Source: an uncultured delta proteobacterium
Lineage (GTDB): Bacteria > Desulfobacterota > WTBG01 > CAIYCZ01
Assembly: GCA_963803975.1 (NCBI GenBank)
Contig: CAWDOY010000003.1
Coordinates: forward strand, 112,446 to 176,445
Direction: 5' to 3'
DNA length: 64,000 bases
Shown here: one piece after another, positions 5,702-57,995 of the stretch
Numbering within the stretch: the first letter of the stretch is position 1
Layout: each line of letters begins with the position of its first letter
Translations under genes and position numbers: made by a program
The notes under the pieces: generated by a model
The model's input: the letters and a program-made list of their open reading frames with translations, nothing else
Database searches by the model: none
Told to the model about the DNA's origin: nothing

Positions 5702-5731
5702 ACACGGTATAAACCCGTTACGCAGCGCTCA

Positions 5732-22851: not shown

Positions 22852-22996
22852 TCAAATATAAACTGAGCATATCAAAGGGCACAGCCCAAAAAAATAATCA
22901 AATTAATTAAGGAGGTGAGAGGCGAGAGAAACGATACGAGTCGTTAACATAAAATAAACGGGTACACAGTAAAACAAAAACTTTTAAAAGGAGGAA

Positions 22997-34198: not shown

Positions 34199-34239
34199 AG
34201 ACTACTTCAGGGAGGCTTATCTTCTTCCGGCGCTAACTT

Positions 34240-34560: not shown

Positions 34561-34611
34561 CAAAAAGAGGGAAATGTGAACTAAACAACAGGCAGATAAC
34601 TATTTAAAAGT

Positions 34612-36190: not shown

Positions 36191-36194
36191 CACA

Positions 36195-38039: not shown

Positions 38040-38064
38040 ACATAAAGATAATAAACAGGATTCT

Positions 38065-39525
38065 ATGTTTGAACAAGCCTTCAAAAACATCGACGACGTC
38101 CTCTGGAAAGAGGCCGGCTGCACCACCGAGCTGGACTACACCGAGCAGACCTCCTGGCTGCTGTTCCTGAAATACCTCGACGGGCTGGAGCAGGACAAGG
38201 CCGATGGAGGCCGCGCTGGAGGGGAAGAAGTACACCTACATCCTCGACAAGCCCTACCGCTGGGAAAGCTGGGCCGCGCCCAAGGGCAAGGACGGCAAGC
38301 TCGACCACAACAAGGCCCTGACCGGCGACGACCTGCGCGACTTCGTCAATCAGAAGCTCTTTCCCTACCTGCACGGCTTCAAGCAGAAGGCCAGCGGGCC
38401 GAACACCATCGAATACAAGATCGGGGAGATCTTCGGCGAGATCAAAAACAAGATCCACAGCGGCTACAACCTGCGCGAGATCATCGACCACATCGACGAA
38501 CTGCGCTTCCGCTCGCAGACCGAGAAGCACGAGCTCTCGCACCTCTACGAAGCCAAGATCAAGAACATGGGCAACGCCGGGCGCAACGGCGGCGAGTATT
38601 ACACCCCGCGCCCGCTCATCCGCGCCATCGTGCAGGTGGTCAAGCCCAAGATCGGCGAGCGCATCTACGACGGCGCGGTCGGCTCGGCGGGCTTCTTGTG
38701 CGAAGCGTTCGACTACCTGAAGAGCCAAGCCCAAGCTGCACCACCGCCAGGACCTGAAGACGCTGCAGGAGCGCACCTTCTACGGCAAGGAAAAGAAGTC
38801 GCTCGCCTACGTCATCGCGATCATGAACATGATCCTGCACGGCATCGAGGCGCCGAACATCATCCACACCAACACGCTCACCGAGAACCTCGCCGACATT
38901 CAGGAGAAGGACCGCTATCGACGTGGTGCTGGCCAATCCGCCCTTCGGCGGCAAGGAGCGCAAGGAGGTCCAGCAGAACTTCCCCATCCGCACCGGCGAG
39001 ACCGCCTTCCTGTTCCTCCAGCACTTCATCAAGATGCTCAAGGCCGGCGGGCGCGGCGGCGTGGTCATCAAGAACACCTTCCTCTCCAACACCGACAACG
39101 CCTCGGTGAGCCTGCGCAAGCTGCTGCTGGAAAGCTGCAACCTGCACACCGTGCTCGACTGCCCCGGCGGCACGTTCCAGGGCGCGGGCGTGAAGACCGT
39201 GGTGCTGTTCTTCGAGAAGGGCGCGCCGACCCGCAAGGTCTGGTACTACCAGCTCGACCCCGGCCGCAACCTGGGCAAGACCAACCCGCTCAACGATGAC
39301 GACCTCGCCGAGTTCGTCGAACTGCAAAAGACCTTCGCCGACTCGCCCAAGAGCTGGAGCGTGGACGCCAAGAGCATCGACCAGACGACCTTCGATCTCT
39401 CCGTGAAGAACCCCAACGGCGGCGAGGAAGTCACCCACCGCAGCCCGCAGGAGATCATGGACGAGATCGCCGCGCTGGATGCCGAGAGTGCGGAGGTGCT
39501 GGCGAACATCAGGGCGCTGCTATGA
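38065..39525 (+). pseudogene. hsdM: type I R-M methyltransferase subunit, at least 3 frameshifts, ~65% GC
   Basis: HsdM_N start MFEQAFKNIDDVLWKEAGCTTELDYTEQTSWLLFLKYLD; NPPFGG motif in ORF 38923..39525; read through 4 overlapping ORFs. Confidence 0.75.
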
Positions 39526-40770
39526 AGAACGGGTGGCAAACGAAGAACGCTTGGGCGACGTCTGCGAGTCATCGACTACGGGCAAGCACGCCAGCAAAGA
39601 CAATCGACCGTTCTGACGGCAATCACTGACGAATGTGATATCTGCGGTCATTACAGACTGTAACCGATGAAAGTTCGTTGACAGACCGAGACATGTCGAT
39701 ATGGTCAGCGATGCTCGAGCAATTCCAGAAGGGTGACGTTCTGTTTGCGACATCACTGAGTCACGTCGGGCAAGGTCGCGCATTGCATACTGACGAGCGA
39801 GTTGCTATCGGCACGACGATGCGCATTGTCTGCATCCGACCAATGACGCAAGCTATTGACTCGAGATTCTTGCTTTACTATCTGCTTCTATCGACTAGTT
39901 CAAGAGCATGTTCGAGCAGCAGATGGAGTCAGGCGCGACCGTCAAGCGTAATCAAAGTCGAGCTTCAAGAGCATTCAGATTCCCATTCCCCCGCTCCCCG
40001 AACAGCAGCGGATCGTCGGCATCCTCGACGAAGCGTTTGACGGCATCGCCACCGCCAAAGCCAACGCCGAAAAGAACCTCCAAAACGCCCGCGCCCTCTT
40101 CGAAAGCCACCTCCAATCCGTCTTCACCCAGCGCGGCGAGGGGTGGGTGGAGAAGACGCTTGGAGAATCTGTCGAATGATCAACGGCGACAGCGGAAGCA
40201 CTATCCGACCGAGAGAATACGTCGAGACGGCATTCCTGTTGTGAACACCGGACAAACGTTCGATGCACGATGGTACTTGTCGCAGACGATATATGAGTTA
40301 CATTCGACCAAGGATGCTACGAATCCACGAAGACGTGCAAATTCAGCAGGCGGCGACGTCTGATTGTTGCATCGACGGCGCAACCGCTGGAAGAGCGGCA
40401 TTGCGATTGTCCGACACCGCAGCGAGCTTACGACATCTGCTTGATCAGCGTCGATCTCAGTTACAGCAAGCAGTCGCGACATAGTCGCTTCGCTTTATCT
40501 GCTATGCTTCAAGTCCGAGGATCTTTCAGGCAGACATCACGTTGATGACAGTTCTGGCAGCTGCACAACAGCTCAACTTGAGACTAAAGCTGTTGAGACT
40601 CTTCGATGCCATCTCCTGAATCGACCGAACAAGCAAGTCAGTATCTCGAAAGCTCGATGACCTCGTCAGACCGAAACCCAACGCCTCGAATCCATCTACC
40701 AGCAGAAGCTCGCCGCACTGGAGGAGTTGAAAAAATCGCTGCTGCACCAAGCCTTCAGCGGCCAACTTTA
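39522..40770 (+). pseudogene. hsdS: type I R-M specificity subunit, heavily frameshifted
   Basis: LGDVCE..., DSRFLLYYLL..., IPIPPLPEQQRIVGILDEAF... and ...YQQKLAALEELKKSLLHQAFSGQL lie in different frames. Confidence 0.55.
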
Positions 40771-40780
40771 GGAATACGCC

Positions 40781-43196
40781 ATGAACGAAGCCGAAACCCG
40801 AGCCGAACATATCGACCCTGCGCTGAAAGCGGCGGGCTGGGGCGTGGTTGAAGGCAGCCGCATCCGGCGCGAGTATCCGATCACGCTGGGCCGCATCGAA
40901 GGCCACGGCAAGCGCGGCAAGGCGCTGACCGCCGATTATGTGCTGGAGTACCGCAACACCAAGCTGGCGGTGGTCGAGGCCAAGGCGTGGGACAAACCGC
41001 TGACCGAAGGCGTGGGGCAGGCCAAGGACTACGCCGGCAAGCTGGCCATCCGCTTCACCTATGCCACCAACGGCCAGGGCATCTACGGCATCGACATGGA
41101 GACCGGCGCCGAGGGCGAACTGGCGCAGTATCCGACGCCGGATGAACTGTGGAACCGGACCTTTGCCACGCAGAACGCCTGGCGCGACCGCTTCGCCGCC
41201 GTGCCGTTCGAGGACAAGGGCGGCTACTTCCAGGGCCGCTACTATCAGGACATCGCCATCGAGCGGGTGCTGGAGGCCATCGCCGACGGACAAGCAGCGC
41301 ATCCTGCTGACGCTGGCCACCGGCACGGGCAAGACCTTCATCGCCTTCCAGATCGCCTGGAAGCTGTTCCACAGCCGCTGGAACCTGACCGACTGGAAGA
41401 CGGAGGGCGAACCAACGCGCCGGCCGCGCATCCTGTTCCTGGCCGACCGCAACATTCTGGCCGACCAGGCATACAACGCCTTTTCCGCCTTTCCCGAAGA
41501 CGCCCTGGTGCGCATCGCCCCGGACGACATCACGCAAGAAGGGCAAGGTGCCGAAGAACGGCAGCATCTTCTTCACCATCTTCCAGACCTTCATGAGCGG
41601 GCCGCCCAAGGATGGCCAGCCATCGCCCTATTTCGGCGAGTATCCGCCGGACTTCTTCGACTTCATCGTCATCGACGAGTGCCACCGCGGCGGCGCCAAC
41701 GACGAGAGCAACTGGCGCGGCATCCTGGACTACTTCGCCCCTGCCGTGCAGCTCGGCCTGACCGCCACGCCCAAGCGCAAGGACAACGTGGACACCTACG
41801 CCTATTTCGGCGAGCCGGTCTACATCTACTCGCTGAAGGACGGCATCAACGACGGCTTTCTCACGCCGTTCCGGGTGAAGCAGATTTCCACGACGCTGGA
41901 CGAGTACGTCTATACGCCCGACGACACGGTGGTCGAGGGCGAGATCGAGGCGGGCAAGCGGTACGAGGAACCCGACTTCAACAAGATCATCGAGATCAAG
42001 GAGCGGGAGAAGAAGCGGGTCGAAATCTTCATGTCGCAGATCGACCAGCGGGAGAAGACGCTGGTCTTCTGCGCCACCCAGGACCATGCGCTGGCGGTGC
42101 GCGACCTCATCAACCAGATGAAGACCAGCACCGACCCGAACTACTGCCAGCGGGTGACGGCCAACGACGGCGCGCTGGGCGAACAGCACCTGCGGGACTT
42201 CCAGGACAACGAGAAGACCATCCCGACCATCCTGACCACCTCGCAGAAGCTCTCGACCGGCGTGGATGCCCGCAATATCCGCAACATCGTGCTGATGCGC
42301 CCGATCAACTCGATGATCGAGTTCAAGCAGATCATCGGGCGCGGCACACGGCTCTACGACGGCAAGGACTACTTCACGATCTACGATTTCGTGAAGGCGC
42401 ACCATCATTTCAGCGATCCGGAGTGGGATGGCGAGCCGCTTGAGCCGGAAACTGTCCAAAATGCGGCTGCTATCCCTGCCAATGCGAAAAGCCACCGCCG
42501 AAACCTTGTCCGGTCTGCGGCAAGCAGCCTTGCGAATGCGTCGAAAGAACCGTGCCCGAACTGCGGCAAGCGTCCGTGCGTGTGCAAGAAGAAAGCGAAG
42601 GTGAAGCTCGCCGACGGCAAGGAACGCACCATCCAGCACATGATGGTGACGAGCTTCTGGCACCCCGACGGCACGCCGATGTCGGCGCAGCAGTTCATGG
42701 AAGTGCTCTTCGGCAAGCTGCCGGAGTTCTTCAAGGACGAAGAGGAACTGCGCGCCCTCTGGAGCGCGCCGGATACGCGCAAGAAGCTGCTGGAGGGACT
42801 GGCCGAAAAGGGCTTCGGCAAAGATCAACTGGCCGAGATGCAGAAGATCATCGACGCCGAGAAGAGCGACCTGTTCGACGTGCTGGCCCATGTGGCCTAT
42901 GCCCTGCCGCCGCTCACCCGTGAGGAACGGGCCGCAAAGGCCAAGGTCATCATCAGCACAGCATTTCAACAGCAAGCAGCAGGTCTTCCTCGACTTCGTG
43001 CTGTCGCATTACGTGAGCGTCGGCGTGGAGGAACTCGACCAGGACAAAGCTGACACCGCTGCTGCGGCTCAAGTATCACGACTCCATTGCCGATGCCGTG
43101 GCCGACCTGGGCAAGCCGGAGGAGATTGGCAAGGTGTTCGCCGGCTTCCAGAAGTACCTCTATCAGCAGCAAGCGGCAGTAACGCAAGAAAAATAA
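40781..43196 (+). pseudogene. hsdR: type I restriction enzyme R subunit, at least 4 frameshifts
   Basis: N-terminus ETRAEHIDPALKAAGW; helicase motifs [24 protein letters not shown]; read across ORFs 40781/41061/41548/42890. Confidence 0.75.
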
Positions 43197-43259
43197 GTTA
43201 AATACGGGCTAACAAGGCACCGTACACACAGGGCAACAGATACTATTCGTGGAGTATAC

Positions 43260-44327
43260 ATGGTGAGTGATAAACTGCTGAAAAAAACAATTTCGGCACA
43301 GGGCGAAGTTTTACTCTATCAGACCGAAGACGGCGCAACTCGAATTGAAGTACGAATGGAGGGTGAAACCGTCTGGATGACGCAGGGAACCATGGCGGAA
43401 CTGTATCAGAACCACGCCGCAAAATATCACGCTTCATTTAAAAGCCATTTATGAGGAGGGCGAACTGGAGGAAGGAGCAACTTGTAAGGAATTCTTACAA
43501 GTTCAAAATGAAGGGGCGCGGAAGGTGACCCGGTCACGAAAATTCTACAGTCTGCCTGCTATTCTTGCAGTCGGCTATCGTGTGCGCTCACACCGGGGAA
43601 CACAGTTCCGGCAATGGGCAACTGAACGGCTTACTGAATATCTCGTCAAGGGCTTTAACCTTGATGACGAGCGATTTAAAAGAGCTGGCGGCGGCGGATA
43701 TTTCGATGAGCTGCTCGCCCGCATCCGCGACATACGCTCATCAGAGAAGGTTTTCTGGCGCAAGGTGCTTGATATTTACGCCACGAGCATTGACTATGAC
43801 TCTCCACGGAAATGTCACAGAAATTCTTTGCCACAGTGCAGAACAAAATGCACTGGGCTGCCCACGGCCACACCGCAGCGGAGGTAATCGCCGCGCGTGT
43901 CGATTCTGAAAAACCCAGCATGGGACTCACCAGCTGGACTGGCGCTCATCCCAACAAAGATGATGTGAGCATTGCGAAGAACTATCTCGACGAAAAGGAA
44001 CTCGATGCGCTCAATCGCATTGTGACACTGTATTTGGAATTTGCAGAACTTCAGGCATTGAACCGTAAACCCATGTATATGGGCGAATGGATCGCCAAGC
44101 TCGACGAATTTCTACGAATAAGTGAGCGCGATATTCTTACTCATGCAGGCAAGGTGAGCCATGAGAACGCTCTACTGAAAGCTGAAACTGAATATCAGAA
44201 GTTCGAGCAGAAGCGTCTGGCTGAACCGACACAGGCGGAGAAGGATTTTGAGGAAGCCGTGAAGAAACTGAGGAAGCTGAAAGCACCCAGCAGGGGAGCA
44301 AAAAAGCCAAAAGGAAAGATGTCATGA
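43260..44327 (+). pseudogene. RhuM-family protein, full length but in three frames
   Basis: VLLYQTEDGATRIEVRMEGETVWMTQ; VGYRVRSHRGTQFRQWATERLTEYLVKGF; FATVQNKMHWAAHGHTAAEVI. Confidence 0.65.
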
Positions 44328-44449
44328 ACCGTTATGTAAATGCAATCGCCGGGCGATTAAGTCTGCGGCAGCCACAGCGTCGCTTCTTGAGAATTAAAGG
44401 GGCAGAGCCCAAAAGACTGCTTCGGTGAAGAATAATATGGAGATAGAAA

Positions 44450-45692
44450 ATGCCTTTAAAATCCTACGAGCACTGCTGTTCTTCCTGTATTGCTCTTGCT
44501 AATCTCGGAAAGATTGAGGGAGTGATACCCATCCTCCATGGACCGCAGGCCTGCGCCTTCGGCAATCAGATCGGCTCCATGTTCTGCCGGCCATCCCGGT
44601 TGCTGACCATTGGCACCACACTTAAAAAGAGTGAAGTTATTTTTGGCGGTGAAGATAAGCTCAAAGAACAGATTGTTAATGTCTATAAACAATACAAGCC
44701 CAAAATTATCGTGATTATTAACACCTGTGTTCCGCAGCTCATAGGCGAAGATTTAAAGGGAGTAATCATCGAGCTGAAGGAAGAACTGCCGGAGCTGAAG
44801 GTGACCTATTGTGAGACCGGATTCAATCAGCCAAAATCTACCCCACTGGGCAATGACGTATCATGGCGGGCGATTATTGACGTGCTGGAGCCCAGGGATA
44901 TGATCAAGGGCTCAGTGGGAATACTGGGGAGGGCAGGGCAGGATGCGGACAGCATGGGCTGTCTTGACGTCTCTGTTGCGGGAAGCGGGTATTACCACGT
45001 TTGCTTTTCCTGCCGGGCACCTTGAAGAAATGGAGAAGATTGTCCAGGCTGAGTATCTGTTCCCCATTCATTTAGTCCCCTATCTGACCAGCAAACGGAT
45101 TAATGAACGGTTTGGCTCAAAGACTGTTTATATTGAACTGCCGGTGGGGATTGCCGGGACTACCAATTTTCTACGCGGAGTTGCCGACCTGACAGGCAGC
45201 ATTAAACTTAAAGAAATTGCAGACCGTGAAGAAAAAAGATCATTGCCGCGATTAGAGAAAATAAGGGAGCAATTCAGACAGAAGCCAACAAAGGTTCTGT
45301 TAGTATCCGGGCCTGCCAATGAAACATCAATTGGGAAAATACTGGCTGAATTCGGAGCAGAAGTGATTATTGTGCCATCCATGCGCAATGCCTTTGCCCG
45401 CCAGGAGCAGGACATTTTGCAAAAGCGCTATGGCTCCCGCATTATCTTCCATGAAAATGACTTTAACAAAGTTTCAGACCTTGTAGGTTTATATAAGCCG
45501 GATGTTGTGTTTGGTGATTTCCAGGCACGCGTTGAGGTTATACGAAACCTTATCCCCTGTCTCATCAACGAGAACTATTTGAATGAATACGGCTATGATT
45601 ATGCCCTGGACTTTGGTGAAAACTTTTTTGAGAACTTGAAGCAGCCATTTTTTACCGAGTGGAAGGATATTATGCGTCAATACGCAGGATAG
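44450..45692 (+). CDS. nitrogenase component 1-type oxidoreductase, NifD/NifE/BchN-like (copy 1), one frameshift near 44960
   Basis: ALANLGKIEGVIPILHGPQACAFG; the second ORF 44943..45692 continues the fold. Confidence 0.7.
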
Positions 45693-45696
45693 AATC

Positions 45697-45775
45697 TGGA
45701 ACTCAGGAACTCATAAATTACAGCCTAATCAAATTAATCTGGAACTCAGGAACTGCATAAATATGATTTTTAAAC
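45697..45775. repeat. two ~26-bp direct repeats in the D-like/B-like intergenic region
   Basis: aatctggaactcaggaactcataaat ... aatctggaactcaggaactgcataaat. Confidence 0.6.
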
Positions 45776-45810
45776 CCTGTGCACGATCGTAGTTTTGTAT
45801 TGGAGATAGC

Positions 45811-47542
45811 ATGTCTGCAACTGACAGAAGAGATTTTATTGCTCCAGAAATAAAGATGAAGGAGATTCATAAGCCATCTTCTTTTGAAGGCGCTTTATGG
45901 GCCGCGCAGGGGATAACAGATGCCCGGGTGATTTATCATGCACCTCCCGGCTGCTATCTTATGCAGCACATGAACTCCATCTGCAATGAATGGCATCCTG
46001 AGATGTACAGCACGCTCATATCATACGCTGAAGTTATGCAGGGCACCGGGAAAAAGCTGGAGGAGGTGCTGGAAAAGGTTGTCGCTGAAAAGCCGCAGGC
46101 AATTATTATAATAACCTCACCGGTGATTGAGATTACCGGCGATGACGTTCAGGGTGCAGTCGCGGCTGCAGGATTCGAGAAGACGGTAATAATAAGACCA
46201 ACCCTGGGCGGCACACTCGCTGATGGAAAGGAAAAGGCATTTATCGCTCTGACCGGACTGATGAAGACAGACGAAGAGAAGCGGAAAAAGTCCGTCAATT
46301 TAATAGGGCCGACCTATAATACGTTCAACTGGCGGGCGGATGTATTTGAACTTAAAAGAATGCTCTCTGCCATCGGTATCTGCGTCAACGCTGTTTTAAC
46401 AGCTGACTGCACGGTTGATGAAATTATACATGCACCCCGGGCTGAACTAAATATATGCATGTATCCCTATGATTGCGGGATAGAATTTGCCAAGAAAATG
46501 CAGGAGCAGTTCAGCATACCGTATATTGCAAGCCATATTCCCCTTGGCTTCCGAGAATCAGCTGCATGGCTTGATGAAATTGCCCGGTTCTTTCTGATTG
46601 ATGCAAAGCAGTATATTGCACAGGAAATAAAAAGTGCCCGGGACTTTGTCACAACGCTTTTGGTAACCAACACCTTCTTTGAAGCAACGGCTGCCCTCTC
46701 AACTGACAACTGTGATACCTACAGCGTCGGGATAAGCAGTTTTCTGAAAAGAGAACTCGGCATGGATGTTTGCATGGCGTCGGTAGCAACTGATGAGGCA
46801 TTGGAAAAAGTGTCCCAGGTTTGCTCTACGGTACTATTAAATCCAAGCATTGATGAGAAAAAGTCGGTAATGCTGGAGAAATCCCCGACCATTATTCTCG
46901 GGAATTACTATGACCTCAAGCTTGCAACTGACCTGGGATTCAAGAACTTCCTGTTTGCGGATATCCCGCTTATCGGATACATCTTTTCAGAAACTACTCC
47001 ATTCATGGGCTTCATGGGTGCTAAGCATCTGGTGCAGGCCATGGGCAATGAGATTTATACCAAGATATTTATTGAGACCAAGGGGGAAATGGAAGGCGCC
47101 ATATCAGCAGGGGAGGTGCCGTGGGAACTCGATGCGGAGCGGGCGCTGGGAAGGATTGCTGAGATGCTCCCTCATTTTATACGTTCAATCGCGCTGAAGA
47201 AAATTCATCAAGTGGCAGATGAGACAGCCGTGCAAAAAAAATCTTCGGTCACGCTGGGGATCCTGCAGGAGGTCGCCACAAAATATACCCCGACGAGGTT
47301 TAAGTCAAAATATGCCACCATCTTTACGGATATAAAAGATACCCCGCTTGTTCCAGATGGCGCTGAGCAGACCGTGTTTCAGATGGAGTGGGATCAGGGC
47401 TGCTAAAGAGATGCTTGAGATGGTGCCCGATGAGTTCGTGGCAAAGGCGGTGAGGGAAACAGAAGGCTATGCCCGCGAGAACAATTATGGTCAAATAACT
47501 ACAGCGGTTGTCGAGGAATACCGGAAGAAGCTCGGCTTTTGA
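45811..47542 (+). CDS. nitrogenase component 1-type oxidoreductase, NifK/NifN/BchB-like (copy 1) with two C-terminal PCP_red-like domains; frameshift near 47395
   Basis: VIYHAPPGCY; PWELDAERALGRIAEMLPHFIRSIALKK; the last domain WSGIRAAKEMLEMVPDEFVAKAVRETEGYARENNYGQITTAVV is out of frame (ORF 47348..47542). Confidence 0.7.
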
Positions 47543-47555
47543 TTAATTGAAATAA

Positions 47556-48429
47556 CTATTCTTCGTCAAACCGCTTATCCCTCAGACTGTCTACAAACTG
47601 CGGGGTAATGACAGAAATTCCCTTTTCTTTTGCTGCATCAACAACCACTTCTATCATTCCATTCAAAAAGATAGCGGGCACTTTCAAAAGCCGTGCGCAG
47701 GCATCTTCCTGCCATGTGATGTTCGGGTCAAATCGGGAACAGGCATACTTAACGGTTGCCATGGTGTTGCCTTTTCCCCGCGGGATCGGGATAGCATAGG
47801 GCGGTGAGTGCCTGGCAAACCAGAACCGTACATTATCCCGGTATCCATAATCAACGGGCAGGGCAGGGAACCCCTGTCCCTTGAATAAACAATCCCGCCA
47901 TTTTTTCTGCATGATGATTTTGTCAATGCGCAGCAGAAAGTGGTATTCCATGCGCTCTTTATTATGCTGCAGCGTAAAACTCTCATCCCAGCTGCACAAA
48001 AAGACCTGAACCGCCTCTTTCACAATATCAGGATGCGTCGCGCAAACCTGGCGGTTGCGCGGCTTGCCATACGGGGTTGCCGGCAGCAGGGTAAAGATGC
48101 TTCTTTTCATTTTCTCCTCAGTGGTCTCACCGGGATAACCAAGCATAACGCAGTTCTTCATATATTTCTTCGTGTCAGGAATATAATTAAGGGAGCAAAC
48201 TTTCGTGCGTATGATGTTAGCGGCGGTATTGCTGCTGCCGCGTGCGATAAGCATCATGGCGTGCTGCTGGTCTCCCGCGATAATATGGGGAAAGCAGAGT
48301 GAATACGGTCCCAGGTTGATCATCCCGGACTCTGAATAAGGTGCTCACCAGTATCACCGGCATCGGAATAAAACTCGACGTCTGATAAAAGTTATCTACA
48401 ATTCGTATTTCGGTAAAATCCTGAGACAT
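47556..48429 (-). CDS. hypothetical protein with C-terminal PCP_red-like domain; one frameshift
   Basis: TWQEDACARLLKVPAIFLNGMIEVVVDAAKEKGISVIT; ORFs 47556..48323 and 48217..48429 overlap. Confidence 0.4.
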
Positions 48430-48656
48430 GCATGAACCTCCATTGGAAAGAGTAAAATGTTATAATTAACCGCGTTAAACAGATAATATAAGAGCCCTTT
48501 AATTTCAAGAAAAATGAAATTAAAGGGCTGATAAATATATCTTGACTCGAAAGTTGCTTGTGATAATAGTTTGGAAACTAAATATAAGGTATCAAATTAA
48601 ACAGCATGTGGCAACATAATTATTACAGCTGATAATCGGCTGACCATTTACCGGAT

Positions 48657-49157
48657 ATGAAGACAGGAAAGAAAATAATGAAAAATAAAAATGAAAACAT
48701 TAATTTAAAGGAAATTGAGGAGTTCGGAGATCATCTGCGCAATTGGAGAAATTTTTTCACTGAGTTTTTTAATAACGTAATAAAAGACAGCGGCAAAATA
48801 TCAGGCTTTGATTTCAGTATGTCACAGTTTAAGACCATGGGGGCCTTTCGGGAAGATACGGTCTATACCATGGGCGAGTTAAGTAAAAATGCTTCTGTTA
48901 CCATGCCGACCATGACTGAAATGATTGATAATCTGGAGCGGGAAGGAATTGCCGAGCGGATAAGGGATTCTCAGGATCGGAGGGTAGTAAAGGTACGTTT
49001 AACTGCAAAAGGAAAAAAGCTGCGCAAGAAATTCATGGATAAACGAAGGAATGAACTTAAAAACATACTCAGCAATCTGAGTAAAGAAGACCGGGGTGAG
49101 CTTATGAATGCGCTTGCCAAAGCGTACAGCGTACTGAAGAAAAACAGCACGGTATAA
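48657..49157 (+). CDS. MarR-family transcriptional regulator
   Basis: Winged HTH TMGELSKNASVTMPTMTEMIDNLEREGIAERIRDSQDRRVVKVRLTAKG. Confidence 0.7.
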   Translation: MKTGKKIMKNKNENINLKEIEEFGDHLRNWRNFFTEFFNNVIKDSGKISGFDFSMSQFKTMGAFREDTVYTMGELSKNASVTMPTMTEMIDNLEREGIAERIRDSQDRRVVKVRLTAKGKKLRKKFMDKRRNELKNILSNLSKEDRGELMNALAKAYSVLKKNSTV

Positions 49158-49192
49158 TACGGCCTGTAGAATAAACAGATAAGGAGAGGATT

Positions 49193-50438
49193 ATGCTTAA
49201 AAGCTATGAGCACTGCTGTTCTTCAATGCAGGCTTTGGCAACACTGGGGAAGGTGGAGGGAATCATTCCTTTGCTGCATGGACCGCAGCCATGCGCCTAT
49301 CAGATTCAGATAGGAACCATGACCTGCCGTCCATCACGCCTTCTTACCGCTGGTACTTTGATTAAGAAATCAGAGGTGGTCTTCGGCGGCGAAGAAAATT
49401 TAAAAAATCAAATAATCAATATGTACCGCCAGTATAAGCCAAAAATAATCGTAATCATCAATACGTGTCTTCCCCAGCTCATCGGCGAGGATATAAAAGG
49501 GGTAATCAGTGAAATAGAACTGGAACTGCCTGATTTAAAAGTGACCTATATTGACAGTGGATTCAATTTCCCTAAATGTATGCCTCTGGGAAACGATGTG
49601 GCGTGGGTATCGATCGTGAGACTGCTTGAAATAAAAGAGAAGGTAAAGGGATCAATTGGTCTGGTTGGAAGGTCAGGGCAGGATGCCGGAGCTTTTACAT
49701 CATTTGACACGTTTTTAAAGCGGGCAGGGATTACGGTATTCCCGTTTCCCGCTCCGCATCTGAATGAAATGGAAAAAATTGCATGTGCAGAAATTATATT
49801 CCCAGTCCATGTAGTACCGTTCCTGACCTGCAAAGAGATGAGCGAACGCTTCGGGTCAAGGGTAGAATATATTGAAATTCCTGCAGGTGTGCAGGGCACT
49901 ACAAATTTCCTGCGGGGGGTTGCTGATATCCTGAAAAACCAGAAGCTGCATGATCTGGTGGATACAGCAGGAGCAGGAAATGCGGCCCCGCATAGAAGCT
50001 ATAAAAGAGCGCTTTGCCAAAAACCCGATTAAAGTGATGTTTGCATTCGGGCCGGCAAGTGAGTTCGGGCTGAGCAAGATTATGGCTGACTTCGGAGCTG
50101 AGGTCATAATGATTCCTTCAATGAAAAATAAGTTCGCACAGCAGGAGAAAGAGCTGCAGAAGAAGCGATACAACGTGACTATTATTGAGGAAGATTTTGA
50201 TACCCTGGAGGATCTCTATGATCAGTACCGGCCGGATGCAGTGTTTTGTGAAACGCAGGGCCGGGTAGAACTTACCTCGCGGCTTATTCCAACATTTTGC
50301 AACATGACTTATTTAACTGCTTACGGATATGACTTTGCTCTGGATATGGGGGAAAAGTTCCATGAGAGTATGAAGCTCGATGTATTATCATCCTGGAGAG
50401 ATGTGGTTCAGAGATACGGAGGCGATCTCAATGCGTAG
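49193..50438 (+). CDS. nitrogenase component 1-type oxidoreductase, NifD/BchN-like (copy 2), one frameshift near 49990
   Basis: ALATLGKVEGIIPLLHGPQPCAY; paralog of 44450..45692. Confidence 0.7.
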
Positions 50439-52194
50439 TACTGAAGGCAAGGCAATGAAGCAGCTGGAACTGGCAGGCGCCCGCGAGCTGAAGATGAAGG
50501 AGATTCATAAGCCTTCAGCGTTTGAGGGGGCTTTGTGGACGGCTCTCGGTATAAAAGATGCGCGGGTTATTTACCACGCACCTCCCGGCTGCTACATCAG
50601 TCAGCATATGGATGCGCTGATGCATGAGTATCCGTTTGAATTATATACGACGTCACTTTCATATGCCAATGTTATGCAGGGTGCAGAGAACCAGCTCGAA
50701 GCAGTGTTGAGAAAAACCCTGGCACGAAAACCAAAACCGAAACTGGTAATCATTGTTACTTCTCCCAGTGTTGAAATAACCGGCGATGATGTGGAGGGGG
50801 TTGTAGAAAAAGTCGGAGATAAAAACTGTGTCGTAATAAGGCCCCCGATTGGCGGAAGCCTGCACGAGGGAAGGGAAAAGGCGTTAATAAGTCTGATAGA
50901 CATAATGGTTCCAGCTGTTGAAAAGATTGCTAAAACAGTTAATTTTATTGGTCCGACTTTTGATACCTTTAACTGGAGAGCTGACGCATTTGAGCTAAAA
51001 AGAATGCTTTCACGTATCGGCATCAAGGTTAATGCGGTACTGACCGGTGGATCACGAGTGAATGAAATTATTAACGCACCACGTGCTTTATTAAACCTCT
51101 GCTTGTATCCCTATGACTGCGGTATTGAGACGGCGCAGATCATGGAGAAGAAATTCGGCATTCCGTATCTTGCCGGCCATGTACCAATTGGTTTTAAAGA
51201 ATCTGCTGTCTGGCTTGAAGAAATTGCTGGCTTTTTCAAGGTGGACGCACGGGAATATCTTAAAGAAGAGACCGAAATGATATTTGAACTAATCCAGTCC
51301 TTTATGGTGCTGCCTATTACGTTTGAATGCTCTGCTGCTCTGTCGCTGGATAATAACGATACCTATGCAGTGGGCATAAGTCAATTTCTGAAAAAGGAAT
51401 TGGGAATGGAGCTCTCCATGGTGGCTGTAGGCAGTGATGCTGCAGGGGAAAAAGTAAAAGAAGTCTGCAGTAATGTTCTGGTAGAACCTACCATTGATGA
51501 AAAGAAGGAGCAGTTTATCGAAAAGGGCCCGATGATGATTATGGGCAACTTTTATGATTTAAAGATAGCCAAAGAACTTGGTTTTAATAACTTCCTCTTC
51601 GCTGATATTCCAACGCTGGGATACATTGCCACAGAGGCAAGCCCCTACATGGGTTTCCAGGGGGCAAGGAATTTGATTCAGCAGACGGGCAATCAGATTT
51701 ATATCAATTTTCTCATTGAGACCAAGGGCGGCATGGAAGAAGCCATCTCTTTGGGAGAAATTCCCTGGGACCTTGATGCACGGGAAGCGTTTGTAAAAGT
51801 CGCAGCCGTAATTCCGCATTTTATTAAAGCTACCGCCATGAGAAAGCTGCAGAAAAAAGCAGAAGAGCTTGCAGTTAAAAATGGCACGGGAATTACTATG
51901 GATATAATTAGAACGGTAACAGAACAGTACACGCCAACCAGGTTTAAATCAAAATTTTTATCTGCATTGCAGGGCGGTCAAGACGGAGAGCAACAGGGGG
52001 AATTTTCTGCAGAACTAACATTTACCATGGAATGGGATGCACCAGCCAGGGAATTGATGGAAAAGATTCCGCAGGAAGTTAAAACAATGGCAGTTGCAGG
52101 TACTGAGGAATTTGCAAGAGAGAAAGGCTACAAAAAAATAACAGTCGGCGTAGTGAATGAGTTCAAAGAAGAGGCCGGCATGGGGAAAAATTAA
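50380..52194 (+). CDS. nitrogenase component 1-type oxidoreductase, NifK/BchB-like (copy 2) with two C-terminal PCP_red-like domains, intact
   Basis: VIYHAPPGCYISQHM; IPWDLDAREAFVKVAAVIPHFIKATAMRKL; MEWDAPARELMEKIPQEVKTMAVAGTEEFAREKGYKKITVGVV. Confidence 0.75.
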   Translation: MYYHPGEMWFRDTEAISMRSTEGKAMKQLELAGARELKMKEIHKPSAFEGALWTALGIKDARVIYHAPPGCYISQHMDALMHEYPFELYTTSLSYANVMQGAENQLEAVLRKTLARKPKPKLVIIVTSPSVEITGDDVEGVVEKVGDKNCVVIRPPIGGSLHEGREKALISLIDIMVPAVEKIAKTVNFIGPTFDTFNWRADAFELKRMLSRIGIKVNAVLTGGSRVNEIINAPRALLNLCLYPYDCGIETAQIMEKKFGIPYLAGHVPIGFKESAVWLEEIAGFFKVDAREYLKEETEMIFELIQSFMVLPITFECSAALSLDNNDTYAVGISQFLKKELGMELSMVAVGSDAAGEKVKEVCSNVLVEPTIDEKKEQFIEKGPMMIMGNFYDLKIAKELGFNNFLFADIPTLGYIATEASPYMGFQGARNLIQQTGNQIYINFLIETKGGMEEAISLGEIPWDLDAREAFVKVAAVIPHFIKATAMRKLQKKAEELAVKNGTGITMDIIRTVTEQYTPTRFKSKFLSALQGGQDGEQQGEFSAELTFTMEWDAPARELMEKIPQEVKTMAVAGTEEFAREKGYKKITVGVVNEFKEEAGMGKN

Positions 52195-52299
52195 ACGAAA
52201 TGTTCTTAACAGAAAGGAGGCAAACATTTACGCAATAATAGCAGAAAATGAAAGCCAGAGAAAATTTAAAACTATGAAAAAATATGGAGGAGAATTGTT

Positions 52300-53239
52300 A
52301 TGAAAAAAACATTGTCAGTACTGTTTGCTTTTATATTTATGGTTAGTTCCGCCTCTATACTATTTGCTTCAGAAGCAAAAAAGGCAGCAACTGCAGGCGG
52401 CAAAGAAAAGATAGGTATTCTTATGGTTGCCCATGGAGAGCCGGAAACGTTTGATGCTCCGGTATGGGAAAAAGGCTTAAAACTGATGTTCAAAGAGTTT
52501 AAGGACTCCGGCATGGAAGTACCTACTGATGAAGCATTTCCGACAATCCTTGAAGAGATTAAGCATAAATATGAGGTTATGGGAGGTAAATCACGCCATG
52601 CCGAAATGTCACGATTGCAGTGCAAGCTTGTCTGCACAGAAGATGCCCGGCTATGATTTCCGTCTTGGCTTTATGGAGTTTATGGGGCCTGAATTTTCCG
52701 AAGTGGCAGAAGGGATGATTAAGGATGGAATTAAAAAGATAGTCTTTCTGCACATGCTGCAGACGGATTCCACACACACCGGAGAAATAAACAACAAGAT
52801 AAAAGAGATGAAGCTTGAGGAGCGGGGGATAAAATACGCAATCAGCAAGCCACTCTTCTACAGACCTGAACCTACGCAGCTCGTTATCGATAAAATTTTG
52901 AAAGCTACCGGGAATACGCCGTATGAGCAGGTCGGGGTTGTGCTTGCATCACACGGAGAACCTGAGGCCTGGGTTAAAGCGAATCTGTTAAATACAAAAT
53001 GCAAAGAGCAGGAGATTGCATTCTGTAACTGCGTAAAAAAGGGCTTAATTGAGAGAGGCTTTGTTTGGGAAAATATTACCCAGGGATTTAATGAATTCCA
53101 AAAACCGGAAATGCCCGAGGCGGTAGAGCTTATGGCTGAACGGAAAGCAAAGAAAGTGGTTGTCATCCCCAGCTTTGGCACTACTGAAGGAATGCATATC
53201 ACCTACGATATACCGACCAAAGCACGGACAGCTTGGTAG
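52300..53239 (+). CDS. secreted two-domain class II chelatase-fold protein (CbiX/CbiK/SirB-like); one frameshift
   Basis: Signal peptide; GILMVAHGEPE and VGVVLASHGEPE half-domains; VVVIPSFGTTEGMHITYDIP. Confidence 0.5.
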
Positions 53240-53339
53240 ATCCTTCAATAGAACTGGTTTATACCGGAGGATGGAACGATAACCCGCTTCTTATAAAAGC
53301 ATGGGTTGAGCTTGCAAAAGAGGCTTTGAAAAGGTTGTA

Positions 53340-53540
53340 GTGACTAACTATTTTAAAAGGATACTAAGCATGGCAAAAATAGATACAACTAAGTGTGTAG
53401 GATGCGGCGGGTGCATTGACCTCTGTCCAGTGATTGCGATTGCTATGATACAGGATGTGGTGACTGTAGATCAGGATATCTGTACAAAATGCGGCATCTG
53501 CATAAAAGTCTGTCCCGTGCGTGCACCTTACGAAGATTAG
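53340..53540 (+). CDS. 2[4Fe-4S] ferredoxin
   Basis: CVGCGGCIDLCP and CTKCGICIKVCP. Confidence 0.8.
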   Translation: MTNYFKRILSMAKIDTTKCVGCGGCIDLCPVIAIAMIQDVVTVDQDICTKCGICIKVCPVRAPYED

Positions 53541-53577
53541 CACGAATAATTAGACATTTTATAAAAGAGGATGCTAT

Positions 53578-54909
53578 ATGGCAAAAAAATATGATCTCGT
53601 GATAGTGGGCGCGGGCCCTGCAGGATTAATGGCTGGAAGAATCGCTGCTGAGAACGGCTTGAAGGTTGTCATTTTAGAGAGGAAAACAGATATCTGCAAG
53701 GTGAGAAGATTTGACGGCGGCGTGTTTGCTATCAATGAATACACCTTTGGCCAGCTCGCTTTGTATAACGAACGGGATAAGAGGGTCACTTTTCCTGTTG
53801 GCGGATTTTCCACTCGCTATGACGGCCCGTACACCAATGTTTTTGGCTTCCACCTTTATTCGCCGGGAGGAAAAAGGCTGCGGTTTGGTGACTGGACGAA
53901 ACTGAAGGACGATCCAATAAAAAACCGGGTAGCCATAGCGCTCAATAAAGAAATACTGTTAAAAAGCATGCTTGATGATTGTCTGGCAACGAGTGTTGAG
54001 GTGTTACCCAATGTAAATGTCACTGCCGTGAAAACCGGCGATAACCGGGTTACGGTAACCGGCAACGGCGAGGAGTATGAAGCACCGTTTCTGATAGCGG
54101 CAGATGGTTCTAATTCGAGGATTGCACGGCTTGCCGGTTTCAACAAAGAACGGGAGTTTTTTGCTACCTCGCGTCACATCGGTTATGAGGTTGAGGGAAT
54201 GGACTATGATGAATTAAACGGGTTTATCATAGCTCTCACCAAACATGGCTTCTACAGCATACTCCCTTATTTTGAAAAAGGGGTAAATCACATCGGGCAT
54301 CTTACCCATGACCCGTCAGTAGACCTGCATGCAACCATGCAATGGTTCATCAAGGAATCGCCGGTCTTTTCATCCTGGTTTAAAAAGGCCAAGGTGCGCG
54401 AAACAGGACTTACCGGATGTGTTGTGAATGTCTATAAGGCACTGGAAGACCCGTTTAAAGATAATGTGATACTGGTGTCTGATGCTGCCTGGATACAGGA
54501 GGTGAGCATTCCCTCGGCAATGTGTTTTGGCTGGAAGGCGGCAAATGCTGTTACGCTGGCTTTGCATGATGGAAAACCAAACCGTGAAGGAGTGCAAAGC
54601 TATCTTGATTGGTATGGCATTAATTTTTACCAGCCGCACGGCAACAGAAAAATGGTTGCAATTGAAATGCAGAAGTTTCTTGCAACCGAAGACCTTGATT
54701 ATCTGGCAGAGCTGCCGGGGAAGGTCTTTCGCCAGACCATGGATTTCCACTATCTGTTCCATATGCTCGGCGAGATATATGGCGGAGACGGGATGATAAA
54801 AATATCAGAAGAGCGTCCGGATATCATGGAAAAGCTTATTGATGCGCGGGGAAGTATGGCAGAAGCATCTGAGGAAAGACGCAAGATGGGTTTTCCCGGG
54901 AAAAAATAA
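53578..54909 (+). CDS. FAD-dependent oxidoreductase, geranylgeranyl reductase family
   Basis: YDLVIVGAGPAGLMAGRIAAENGLKVVILERK; ~440 aa; cognate ferredoxin directly upstream. Confidence 0.7.
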   Translation: MAKKYDLVIVGAGPAGLMAGRIAAENGLKVVILERKTDICKVRRFDGGVFAINEYTFGQLALYNERDKRVTFPVGGFSTRYDGPYTNVFGFHLYSPGGKRLRFGDWTKLKDDPIKNRVAIALNKEILLKSMLDDCLATSVEVLPNVNVTAVKTGDNRVTVTGNGEEYEAPFLIAADGSNSRIARLAGFNKEREFFATSRHIGYEVEGMDYDELNGFIIALTKHGFYSILPYFEKGVNHIGHLTHDPSVDLHATMQWFIKESPVFSSWFKKAKVRETGLTGCVVNVYKALEDPFKDNVILVSDAAWIQEVSIPSAMCFGWKAANAVTLALHDGKPNREGVQSYLDWYGINFYQPHGNRKMVAIEMQKFLATEDLDYLAELPGKVFRQTMDFHYLFHMLGEIYGGDGMIKISEERPDIMEKLIDARGSMAEASEERRKMGFPGKK

Positions 54910-54927
54910 TAAACAAAGGAGAAGAAC

Positions 54928-55743
54928 ATGAATAAAATCAGATTACCAATAATACCAGTTATAGTTGCAGCACTGATGTGCATGTGGGCATACGGCACCG
55001 TAGCCTACGCAGCCGCAGATATAAAAGCTTTGAAAACTAAAATAGACGATACCTGGGACAGTGGTGATTTTAAAGCATTTGAAAATCTGGAAAAGGAATT
55101 AACTTCACAGGTTAGCGATAAGGATGCTGATGGCTGTCTGGTGCTGGCTAAATTTTACTATTGGTATTCGATGCTCTATGCGGAAAAAGCAAATACTGAT
55201 AAAAAGCACTGGCTTGATGAGGAAAAGTATGCCGGCGATAAGGCACTGTGGGCTAAAGGCGGGGAGATGATTGATAAGGCCCTTGACTTAATTAAAAAGG
55301 CTGATGAAATGAGTCCGGGAAATCCCCAAATACTTCCTTATTATGCTGTAATCAAATATCGCAAGATACGCCATTGCGGCAACATGATATGTGCCATGCT
55401 GCATATGAAGAGCCTTTTGGATGTAACCCGGCTTACCATTGAGAAAGGCAAAAATGACGCAAGCGCCAATCTGGCTTATGGTATCTACAAGCTCGGCAGA
55501 TCACAGAAAATGGGAGGCAATCCCCGTGAAGCCATCAGCTATCTGCAGGTGGTTATAAAACTTGATCCCAACAGGGCCGAAGGATATTTCTGGTACGGTA
55601 AATTTTTCATGAGCCCGAATATAAAATTTCAACCTAAGCTTGCCCGTCCGAATTTTGAAAAGGCGGTTGCTCTTAATCCAAAAAACTGGCTGTATAAGGA
55701 AACGCTTGAACAATTTAACAAAGACTATCCTCCTGAAAAATAA
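54928..55743 (+). CDS. secreted hypothetical protein (helical/TPR-like)
   Basis: Signal peptide; 271 aa. Confidence 0.4.
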   Translation: MNKIRLPIIPVIVAALMCMWAYGTVAYAAADIKALKTKIDDTWDSGDFKAFENLEKELTSQVSDKDADGCLVLAKFYYWYSMLYAEKANTDKKHWLDEEKYAGDKALWAKGGEMIDKALDLIKKADEMSPGNPQILPYYAVIKYRKIRHCGNMICAMLHMKSLLDVTRLTIEKGKNDASANLAYGIYKLGRSQKMGGNPREAISYLQVVIKLDPNRAEGYFWYGKFFMSPNIKFQPKLARPNFEKAVALNPKNWLYKETLEQFNKDYPPEK

Positions 55744-55832
55744 AACAACAATAATTCTGCTATGGTTCGGGACCATCTTTAGTTTAGGCGGTTCCGAACC
55801 TTAATAAATTTAAATACACCAAGAGGTATAGC

Positions 55833-57272
55833 ATGAAAATTCTTAAAATAGTCCTACTATGTATAGTTGTTCTTGTTATCGCAGGGTATGGATTATACAA
55901 GTATAAAAACCTACCACAAAAACCCGATTATTATGAGTTCTATAAGAATCAGGATACCGTGCCTGAAGGGAAGATAGGGGTTCTGGTGGCCGGCTTGATC
56001 ATGCCGGAAAAGATCAGCCCGGTGTTTTTCAATAATGTAGCGAAAAAAATCTTTAAGACGATCGTTCCCTGGCCGGCCCGCAATTTTGTTACAGCAGATA
56101 AAGGGGTCGCTCTGCTTGATCCGGTTACGTTCCACTCTCATGAATCTTTTACGCCGACCAGTCTTATTGACCCTGATGGTAGCGACCGTGACATAGACGG
56201 AATGCCCTATATCGAGAAGTATAAGCAGGGACTGGTGAAATGGGTTCCCCCATCATCCATGCTCTATCTTGATCACGGCTATTTTCTCTACACCGGACGC
56301 AAGGGTGGCCAGCCAACTATTTGCGGGAAAATAATAAATAAATCCCGCATCTGGTATCACAATAAAGGCAGCCTCCAGCATGATCTTCCCCACTGGAAGC
56401 AGACCTTTAAGGTAATTGATGGTGCACATGAAAAGCTGAAGGAAAAATATGGAAATATTGAGTTCCGGGCTGAATGTAATATGTTTTATTATGAGCTGCG
56501 CGAAAAGCTCTATGAACTGCTCGATGCAGGATGCACTACGCTCGTGCTCAGCTCGCCTCTTCCCATGTACTCGCACTTTGAAGAATTTAACTCAGGTTTT
56601 CGCCACTGCTTTGAGTTTATTGAGGAGTGGGAAAAAGAACACCCCGGTAAGAAAATTAAGGTCATCATGGCGCCGCCCATGGGGCTCTATCAGCCCTATC
56701 GAAAGGCGTTTTTAGAAATGCTGAAAGACCGATTGGATACTTTGCCTAAAGATGCCAGCATTACGGTAGTGGTAAGTGTTCACGGCATGCCCTGGGATCT
56801 TTTCACATGGGAAGCATGGATACAGCTTGCTCCACCCTGGCGCGACAAGCTGTTTGAAGAAATCAAGGAGATGGTGGATTCATATAAATTTAAAAAGACT
56901 AATGTGGTAGCAGCACAGGATGAGTTTGCAGACCCGATCTGGGACCCAAAACAAAAATATCTTTCAACCAACCGCGCCTACTGGAATGCAATCAAGGAAG
57001 GATATGATTATGCGATTAATATCCCGATAGAATTTTATGGCGAAAACTCAGATACGATGTTTCACCATGCACTGAAAAACTATCACGGGTTTGATCAGTA
57101 TGATTTGTATAAGCCGATTGATTATCCTGACTGGTCGGTTCCTTTAACCAGAGAATTTGTACAAGGAAAAACCCGCATAATATATAATGGAGTGCCGGTA
57201 GGCAAATATCAAAAGTACGTAATTGAAGCATTTTACCAATCAATTGACTCCATTTTATCTAAGAAAAAATAA
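55833..57272 (+). CDS. membrane-anchored ferrochelatase-like (class II chelatase fold) protein
   Basis: N-terminal TM helix; KIGVLVAGLIMPEK and ITVVVSVHGMPWD resemble HemH signatures. Confidence 0.35.
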   Translation: MKILKIVLLCIVVLVIAGYGLYKYKNLPQKPDYYEFYKNQDTVPEGKIGVLVAGLIMPEKISPVFFNNVAKKIFKTIVPWPARNFVTADKGVALLDPVTFHSHESFTPTSLIDPDGSDRDIDGMPYIEKYKQGLVKWVPPSSMLYLDHGYFLYTGRKGGQPTICGKIINKSRIWYHNKGSLQHDLPHWKQTFKVIDGAHEKLKEKYGNIEFRAECNMFYYELREKLYELLDAGCTTLVLSSPLPMYSHFEEFNSGFRHCFEFIEEWEKEHPGKKIKVIMAPPMGLYQPYRKAFLEMLKDRLDTLPKDASITVVVSVHGMPWDLFTWEAWIQLAPPWRDKLFEEIKEMVDSYKFKKTNVVAAQDEFADPIWDPKQKYLSTNRAYWNAIKEGYDYAINIPIEFYGENSDTMFHHALKNYHGFDQYDLYKPIDYPDWSVPLTREFVQGKTRIIYNGVPVGKYQKYVIEAFYQSIDSILSKKK

Positions 57273-57407
57273 TTTGTTATTTGCCTGACTCGCAAGCAGG
57301 TTCAGACCTTGCCGCATAAGGATGGGTCTGAACCTGCTTGGAAAATTCAATCTGCAACACATAATATATCAACCAGCACTAAATGGGTCTTAACGGTGGA
57401 GAAATTA

Positions 57408-57995
57408 ATGGACATTTTAGCAATCTGTGGAAGTCCCAGAAAACATAAAACTACTCACAGCGTGCTGGAGGCGGTACTGTCTGGAGCAGGCAGGCCATAT
57501 GAAATACTGTGGCCTGCTTTTATGAAGATTGGCCACTGCATAAGCTGTCAAAAGTGTAAGTACAAAACACCTGGCGAATGCTGGCAGGACGATGACATGA
57601 AAGTGGCCATCGAAAAAATGTTTGCAGCCAGAGCGCTTATAATAGCATCTCCCACTTATTTTGGTAATGTACCAGGCCCCTTAAAGAACTTTATCGATAG
57701 AACCATCCCTACCTGCTATACCGGCAAGGGAGACACTTGGATGGGAGCAGAGAACCACGGGAAACGGCCTTTTAAGGGGCAACTCGGCATGATTGTTGTC
57801 GTGTCGGGTGGTGCTGACCAGGAGAAAACAGCAGCTAATCTGCGCCTGGTATTTGATTATTATGAATATGCTGTGATTGGAGAATTTGCCGAGAGCATGG
57901 GTGGGATTATTGTCAGCAAACAAGAATACCCGGATATCTATACCAGGCTTTTTGCTCTTGGCAAAATACTTGATGAAGCCCTGAAAACAAGGTAA
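57408..57995 (+). CDS. iron-sulfur flavoprotein (Isf)/NADPH-dependent FMN reductase family
   Basis: MDILAICGSPRK plus compact CISCQKCKYKTPGEC motif. Confidence 0.65.
   Translation: MDILAICGSPRKHKTTHSVLEAVLSGAGRPYEILWPAFMKIGHCISCQKCKYKTPGECWQDDDMKVAIEKMFAARALIIASPTYFGNVPGPLKNFIDRTIPTCYTGKGDTWMGAENHGKRPFKGQLGMIVVVSGGADQEKTAANLRLVFDYYEYAVIGEFAESMGGIIVSKQEYPDIYTRLFALGKILDEALKTR

Follow-up and report, generated by a model that had tools for sequence, protein, structure and literature searches.

The window analysed here, a stretch of 64,000 nucleotides from an uncultured delta proteobacterium (contig CAWDOY010000003.1 of assembly GCA_963803975.1), carries two nitrogenase-like modules on its plus strand, each made of a D-like and a B-like gene (D1-B1 and D2-B2). 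The interval that holds both modules, 44450-52194, has six genes, and four of them are split on the source contig. We consider it likely that these are intact genes in the organism and that the shifts are consensus indel errors of an error-prone, long-read-style metagenome assembly, because no relative has the extra bases, the frames are restored when they are taken out, and constraint is kept. The same reading is favored because the lesions are scattered in unrelated genes, show an insertion-only spectrum, and follow a pattern that tracks assembly type. The shifts in D1, B1, D2 and the 290-amino-acid (290-aa) gene between the modules would thus be spurious single extra bases, not mutations in the organism.

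Orthologous loci were gathered through the list of B2 homologues and comprised L001, L002, L003, L004, L005 and L006. L006 is a Lac Pavin metagenome-assembled genome in GenBank, and L004/L007 is the JGI contig Ga0209777_10001314. The short-read assemblies used for comparison were L004-L008, and the assemblies with ENA 'contig_N' names were L003, L009 and L010. Nucleotide identity to the window was 97-98% for L003 (B1 and flanks), 94% for L006 and 92% for L004/L005 (modules), with D1 alone reaching just 83-88% identity to its relatives. Open reading frames (ORFs) of the window were listed and translated in three frames, domains were assigned with Pfam (cut-offs of 28.6 bits for Oxidored_nitro, PF00148, and 32.5 bits for PCP_red, PF08369), and family membership was tested against NCBIfam equivalog cut-offs. 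Lesion sites were placed by pairwise DNA alignment of the window with the orthologous loci.

Single extra bases split four genes of the interval

Both modules lie where the initial annotation had put them, with Pfam and ORF translation in agreement, and B2 is intact as it had claimed. Oxidored_nitro scores exceed the cut-off in all four D and B genes (D1, 109 and 75 bits; B1, 220; D2, 142 and 31; B2, 227). The D1 domain is spread over two overlapping ORFs (domain positions 1-155 and 164-392), and in B1 the Oxidored_nitro ORF, 45811-47406, is followed by PCP_red in another frame at 47348-47542. PCP_red scores 45 bits in B2 and 29.3 bits in the shifted tail of B1, the latter slightly under the cut-off. 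The B2 ORF opens at 50380, and its start is likely at 50431, since ORF residue 18 is where every homologue begins; this start overlaps the D2 stop by 8 nucleotides (nt).

D1, B1 and D2 have one frame change each, and each change comes from a single extra base (Table 1). These bases are missing from every relative examined, which amounts to four independent relatives with 92-98% nucleotide identity across the modules. Deleting one base per site gives open frames of 413 (D1), 576 (B1), 414 (D2) and 290 aa with no internal stop, and all four lesions of the interval need the same +1 correction. Orthologues of D1, 414-417 aa long, are unbroken in L003 and L004, and corrected B1 aligns with the intact protein P0056 over residues 1-576 at 96.5% identity. 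At the D2 site, a pattern allowing both versions was scanned in genome and metagenome collections, and all sequences it found were uninserted. The source contig, deposited at NCBI/ENA, has truncated D1 (191 aa) and B1 (531 aa) among its recorded proteins; its size of 383,918 bp is in keeping with long-read assembly.

The comparison with orthologous loci, which the initial annotation had proposed as a check, shows one extra base per lesion in the window that the relatives do not have. Its single shifts in D1, B1 and D2 are confirmed, and a fourth lesion of the interval, at 48337-48340, had been overlooked. Two of its sites (~44960 and ~47395) were accurate; the third (~49990) was off by ~25 nt, still inside the ORF overlap.

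Constraint persists on both sides of the shifts

In the corrected frames, the ratio of nonsynonymous to synonymous polymorphism (pN/pS) upstream of the shift is 0.08 for D1, 0.12 for D2 and 0.13 for B1; downstream of it, the values are 0.11, 0.08 and 0.00, respectively. Eight genes were examined, seven of them shifted, and the removal of 13 frameshifting extra bases left 0 internal stops. No nonsense codon occurs among the substitutions of the seven shifted genes (~400) or of all eight (~610). The indel-to-substitution ratio, 13 frameshifts against ~400 substitutions, is too high for neutral decay. Genuine pseudogenes would be expected to look different: constraint is not relaxed here, the corrected frames hold no nonsense codons, and instead of a lesion shared within the same lineage we find the extra bases in none of L003, L004/L005/L007, L006 or L010.

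Lesions are scattered across the window, and other assemblies have private ones of their own

Extra-base lesions are scattered over the whole window. Most are 1-nt insertions of non-repeated bases, and at least 12 other genes are hit (Table 1). The 40.7-43.2 kb region is also affected, PanE and RhuM are split between frames, and extra bases occur in intergenic DNA too (45755 and 22811-22982). The 3.5-kb dnaE gene adjoining the broken YkuD gene has no indel against L008, the same short-read assembly in which YkuD is whole. Relative to the short-read comparators, the private coding indels of the window are insertions in 11 of 11 cases (1-2 bases), mostly not repeating the neighboring base. Spontaneous bacterial indels are biased to deletions and tied to homopolymers; the insertion-only, mostly non-homopolymer spectrum is therefore unlike them. 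Hence the 'scattered indel errors' that had been offered as one of two possibilities agree with what we find, namely private extra bases and the same type of lesion in unrelated genes window-wide.

Assemblies with 'contig_N' names have private frameshifts of their own, which hit the same genes but elsewhere in them. L003 carries an extra G at 59180 that is present in neither the window nor L004; in L010, D1 is split near codon 182 and five extra bases fall within 27.7-31.3 kb, where the window is clean; in L009, D and B are in several pieces. The short-read assemblies L004-L008, on the other hand, are free of private frameshifting indels at all sites compared, and the genes called in L004, L005 and L008 are full length. 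L006 has gaps of 148 nt in D1 and 48 nt in B2. The picture resembles that of errors in long-read (meta)genome assemblies, in that scattered 1-nt indels split conserved genes, are private to each assembly, and are found in none of the short-read relatives.

Further artefact-like gene calls were observed in the 'contig_N' assemblies. In L003, pheT is split into 202 and 569 aa (17635-20047). In L010, a 665-aa AsmA-DUF748-Ppx 'fusion' (4034-6031) is made by private 1-nt indels.

Alternative origins of the shifts

In a departure from long-read assembly errors, the lesions are not concentrated in homopolymers and are uneven along the contig. Several observations weigh against an assembly origin. In L010 the D1 lesion is a deletion, and both types occur in L009; 'insertions only' is thus not common to the 'contig_N' assemblies, which we take to be long-read from naming conventions. 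DnaE, an HMGL-like gene and LeuB are without indels against L008, and EF-G, GuaA, GuaB and an aldehyde dehydrogenase align over the full length of their Pfam domains. Selection, too, would leave housekeeping genes clean and accessory genes broken. Eight to nine indels fall within 59.1-61.1 kb, with substitution divergence of 2-6% against ~1% in the flanks.

Clean accessory genes nevertheless lie in the same island over 6-8 kb (B2, ferredoxin, FAD oxidoreductase, TPR, chelatase-like and FMN reductase genes). Because these accessory genes are also clean, the clustering of indels is spatial rather than functional, and it is better explained by local consensus quality (coverage or strain mixture) than by selection.

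The alternative that fares best is that the extra bases arose as real mutations very recently, inactivating the tetrapyrrole-related island and other dispensable genes while selection keeps the essential ones whole. We regard this as unlikely. Housekeeping DnaE, EF-G, GuaA, GuaB and LeuB are indeed intact, and the damage lies in YkuD, PanE, Ppx, the nitrogenase-like genes, CbiX-a, hypothetical genes and the restriction-modification island, but several accessory genes of the same island are untouched. Some broken genes have several lesions and the slightly raised divergence given above; downstream pN/pS, however, is as low as upstream, and 13 frameshifts stand against 0 nonsense codons. Module content does differ among close relatives, with L003 lacking 48430-57936, yet no lesion is common to any relative or other public contig. 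The spectrum itself is unnatural, since all 11 events are insertions of one or two bases and most of them fall outside homopolymers. Like-named assemblies carry private frameshifts even in pheT. If the insertions were real, they would represent a very recent, insertion-biased inactivation of both modules and many accessory genes, at the earliest stage of decay; we hold this improbable.

A recent tandem duplication might instead have made a redundant second module, with redundancy now permitting the decay of either copy. The modules are adjacent, in the same orientation and with the same gene order. Yet D1 and D2 share only 57% and B1 and B2 only 54% amino acid identity (~66% at the DNA level), which refutes a recent event, and pN/pS is ~0.1 in both paralogues. 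For each copy there are separate orthologues, at 92-97% nucleotide identity. The order D1-B1-(290 aa)-MarR-D2-B2-ferredoxin-FAD oxidoreductase is found with all genes intact in L004/L007 and L005, and the order D1-B1-(290 aa)-MarR-D2-B2 is also found in L006. We therefore give a recent duplication very little credence. On sequence comparison, the modules are an old, conserved paralogous pair within an island whose genes and their order vary between close relatives, because their protein identity is 54-57%, each has its own orthologues, and the layout is intact in relatives. The description 'paralogous but diverged' in the initial annotation is borne out by these identities. A 'tandem duplication' that took place in this genome conflicts with the same identities, with the separate orthologues, and with the layout kept in L004/L005/L006; the 'ongoing decay of a redundant system' likewise falls, with no relaxed constraint, no nonsense mutations and lesions in no relative.

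Programmed +1 ribosomal frameshifting or transcriptional slippage that restores full proteins would suit the common +1 correction of all four interval lesions and the purifying selection on the downstream frames, but its probability is next to nil, given that the sites are not conserved (the extra bases are missing in 92-98% identical relatives), the contexts hold no common slippery motif, homopolymer or in-frame stop, and like lesions lie in intergenic DNA (45755; 22811-22982).

Specific error types were also considered for the preferred explanation, consensus errors of the assembly. A systematic error bound to a methylation motif or to homopolymers was rejected: the sites have no motif in common, and the inserted base mostly differs from its neighbors. 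Non-coincident lesions, which had been taken to argue against a single systematic artefact, do exclude a motif-bound one but not random consensus errors. Insertions from a 'collapsed SNP' (single-nucleotide polymorphism) fit 49964 (window GAT[A]CAG; L002 GATAAG; L004 GATCAG) and some other sites, not most of them. Uniform random error was rejected because the indels are clustered.

Variation within and around the modules

Loci with a single module also exist, with module 2 only in L001 and L002 and module 1 only in L003. L003 is without 48430-57936, a segment of 9.5 kb that holds the MarR, D2, B2, CbiX-a, ferredoxin, FAD oxidoreductase, TPR, chelatase-like and FMN reductase genes, and on either side of the missing segment it matches the window at 97-98% identity.

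The 5' two-thirds of D1 (44416-45333) have 83-87% identity to L003, L004, L006 and L010, whose B1 is at 92-97%; the low identity of this part suggests a recombination mosaic within module 1. D1 and B1 are separated by a spacer in which a 19-nt repeat, AATCTGGAACTCAGGAACT, occurs twice. This spacer is present in the short-read L006, longer in L003, and absent from L004, whose D1 and B1 genes have an 8-nt overlap. A motif similar to AATCTGGAACTCAGGAACT was seen in a 197-nt segment of L008 that is missing from the window at 18016. The repeat spacer may be a small mobile intergenic element.

Between the modules, the C-terminus of the 290-aa gene is weakly PCP_red-like at a sub-threshold level (E ~0.008), both in the fragment seen in the window and in the unbroken orthologue of L004. 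This PCP_red-like end hints at a functional partner of the B-like subunits.

Upstream of the modules, 38000-44400 forms an island of 56-60% GC in a window of ~45% GC, densely fragmented on both strands. It includes a split RhuM gene (43525-44327) and differs from L003 by 14 small indels over 2.4 kb. The counterpart in L003 is likewise fragmented, and L004 has a type I restriction-modification system there. Further upstream, at 34237-36614, a DUF772/DDE transposase gene (34659-36149) is flanked by ORF6N fragments at 34237-34527 and 36219-36614, and L010 has a single intact 176-aa gene at the ORF6N position. Because the L010 gene is unbroken at the same position, 34237-36614 looks like a genuine insertion sequence (IS) insertion.

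Relation to known nitrogenase-like enzymes

The D and B proteins belong to the nitrogenase component-1-type superfamily (PF00148), with both subunits above the gathering score. All NCBIfam equivalog models tested (BchB, BchN, BchZ, BchY, CfbD, NifD/K, NifE/N and Vnf/Anf) were missed by far. For BchB (TIGR01278, cut-off 490), B2 scores 155.6 and B1 136.3; for BchN (TIGR01279, cut-off 420), the D fragments reach at most 48. BchZ (cut-off 529) gives 130.6 for B1 and 114.1 for B2, and BchY (cut-off 425) gives 18 for D1. CfbD, the Ni-sirohydrochlorin a,c-diamide reductive cyclase (TIGR03282, cut-off 268.4), gives at most 56 bits, and among the nitrogenase models nifE reaches 99 against a cut-off of 505 and nifK 52 against 427. 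Among solved structures, B2 best matches ChlB/BchB of dark-operative protochlorophyllide oxidoreductase (DPOR; 2xdq_B, E 6e-19), with the C-terminal PCP_red segment aligning too, and D2 best matches NifE/NifEN and VnfD.

Asp36 of BchB/ChlB is the fourth ligand of the inter-subunit [4Fe-4S] cluster in DPOR structures. In phmmer alignments to 2xdq_B and 8vqi_B, B2 has a Cys (HAPPGC) at this position (HAPLGD/HAPQGD in BchB/ChlB), and the position of the BchB SSC Cys reads TSP in B2. The D subunit retains the HGPQxC and NTC motifs. Because Asp36 is replaced by Cys in B and HGPQxC and NTC are kept in D, the data suggest that the inter-subunit [4Fe-4S] site is all-Cys.

Compared with DPOR (BchN/BchB, ChlN/ChlB; Group V), the system has the same D-like and B-like pair, Oxidored_nitro in both subunits and PCP_red on B. 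It differs in the unreached cut-offs, the changes of Asp36 to Cys and SSC to TSP, and a window with neither a BchL-like nor a photosynthesis gene. In chlorophyllide oxidoreductase (COR; BchY/BchZ) the inter-subunit cluster is all-Cys, as expected here, and the BchZ score of B1 (130.6 bits) is close to its BchB score (136.3 bits). The proteins are nonetheless far under the BchZ and BchY cut-offs, and BchZ is without the genomic context seen here.

A third comparison is offered by the uncharacterised Group VI NflHDK systems of Elusimicrobia, Myxococcales and Gracilibacteria, which are without FeMo-co and NifB features (10.1101/765248; PMC13474568). Tetrapyrrole reduction has been proposed for them from context, and several copies per genome are possible (10.1101/765248; PMC13474568). 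A 2026 review of nitrogenase-like systems treats Group VI as an uncharacterised tetrapyrrole-associated group (PMC13474568; original description 10.1101/765248). Compared by description only, the D/B pairs are like Group VI in being uncharacterised, in the tetrapyrrole substrate proposed and in their several copies. Group VI loci are, however, rich in radical SAM genes, and none was found among the neighbors scanned here; this lack argues against the typical Group VI context. No description of this D/B clade was found in the searched literature, and nothing specific for Desulfobacterota. The D/B pairs probably represent an undescribed nitrogenase-like clade with a BchB-type C-terminal domain and chelatase and flavoprotein neighbors.

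No NifH/BchL-like gene was found in the window: a tblastn search with two NifH-like proteins of L002 gave just a weak P-loop match at 3979-4134. In L002, two NifH-like genes lie directly upstream of its module 2, and in the present genome the NifH-like partner may be encoded elsewhere. The window also holds no photosynthesis gene. The family is common, with >140 homologues of 575-590 aa, several of them labelled Desulfobacterota or Deltaproteobacteria; DnaE homologues likewise point to Desulfobacterota/Deltaproteobacteria, and the host appears to be non-phototrophic and Desulfobacterota-like.

From homology and context, we infer how such an enzyme might work. D and B would form a D2B2 heterotetramer, with an inter-subunit [4Fe-4S] cluster that would be bound by the D cysteines (HGPQxC, NTC) and one B cysteine (HAPPGC). 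Electrons would come from a NifH/BchL-like ATPase encoded elsewhere, and D2B2 would reduce a tetrapyrrole-type substrate in an ATP-dependent manner.

Neighboring genes

Downstream of B2, the island continues with genes for CbiX/ferrochelatase-like, ferredoxin and flavoprotein products, most of them in a single frame (Table 1). Orthologues of CbiX-a are intact at 320 aa. The N-terminus of CbiX-a is signal-peptide-like (MKKTLSVLFAFIFMVSSASILFA), reminiscent of periplasmic CbiK-type proteins. The second CbiX ORF measures 370 aa against 332 aa in L003, and a 1-nt difference at 58991 moves the stop. Three CbiX/ferrochelatase-like paralogues thus share one island (52300-53340, 55833-57272 and 58005-59117). 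Scanned for Rfam families and tRNAs, the window gave no hits.

Table 1. Coordinates of the modules, their neighbors and the extra-base lesions in the window.
Feature	Position	Strand	Remarks
YkuD (L,D-transpeptidase) gene	21782-22726		extra bases at 21924 and 22500 give three frames; 314 aa in short-read L008
Ppx gene, extra base	31276		relative to L010
AsmA-like gene, extra base	32781		relative to L010
D1, NifD/BchN-like, module 1	44450-45692	+	ORFs 44450-45025 and 44943-45692; 413 aa corrected
Extra G in D1, CTT[G]ACG	44966	+	absent from L003, L004, L006 and L010
D1-B1 spacer	45693-45810	.	two copies of the 19-nt repeat AATCTGGAACTCAGGAACT, at 45693 and 45736
Extra G, non-coding	45755		after the second AATCTGGAACTCAGGAACT copy; from alignment
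B1, BchB/NifK-like with C-terminal PCP_red, module 1	45811-47542	+	576 aa corrected
One extra base in B1, CAGGGC[T]GCT relative to L003	47397-47401	+	48 codons before the B1 end
290-aa conserved gene between modules	47556-48429	-	split by one extra base; intact in L003, L004 and L005
Extra base in 290-aa gene	48337-48340		located by DNA alignment with orthologous loci
MarR-family regulator, upstream of module 2	48657-49157	+	Pfam; conserved in L001, L002, L004 and L005
D2, NifD/BchN-like, module 2	49193-50438	+	ORFs 49193-50032 and 49950-50438; 414 aa corrected
Extra A in D2, GAT[A]CAG	49964	+	absent from L001, L002, L004 and L006
B2, intact BchB/NifK-like, module 2	50431-52194	+	Oxidored_nitro and PCP_red; 587 aa
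CbiX-a, CbiX/ferrochelatase-like	52300-53340	+	+1 shift near 52629; -1 or +2 near 53230
Ferredoxin, 2x[4Fe-4S]	53340-53540	+	no frame shift visible
FAD oxidoreductase, 443 aa	53578-54909	+	0 coding indels relative to L004
TPR protein	54928-55743	+	no frame shift visible
Chelatase-like protein, 479 aa	55833-57272	+	no frame shift visible
FMN reductase	57309-57995	+	no frame shift visible
Second CbiX/ferrochelatase	58005-59117	+	single frame, 98.8% to L003; end uncertain
426-aa gene, indels	59138, 59844, 59948, 60010, 60021		from alignment
CarboxypepD_reg gene, indels	60709, 61108		from alignment

Significance

As a claim of gene decay or redundancy, the split genes are most likely without importance; the lesions look like consensus errors. 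Gene calls on the source contig need frameshift-aware correction. The window adds no functional evidence of its own. The D/B pair is widespread in Desulfobacterota-type bacteria, often as two conserved paralogues, amid CbiX/ferrochelatase-like, ferredoxin and flavoprotein genes, and it is a candidate enzyme for tetrapyrrole chemistry of a new kind in non-phototrophic bacteria.

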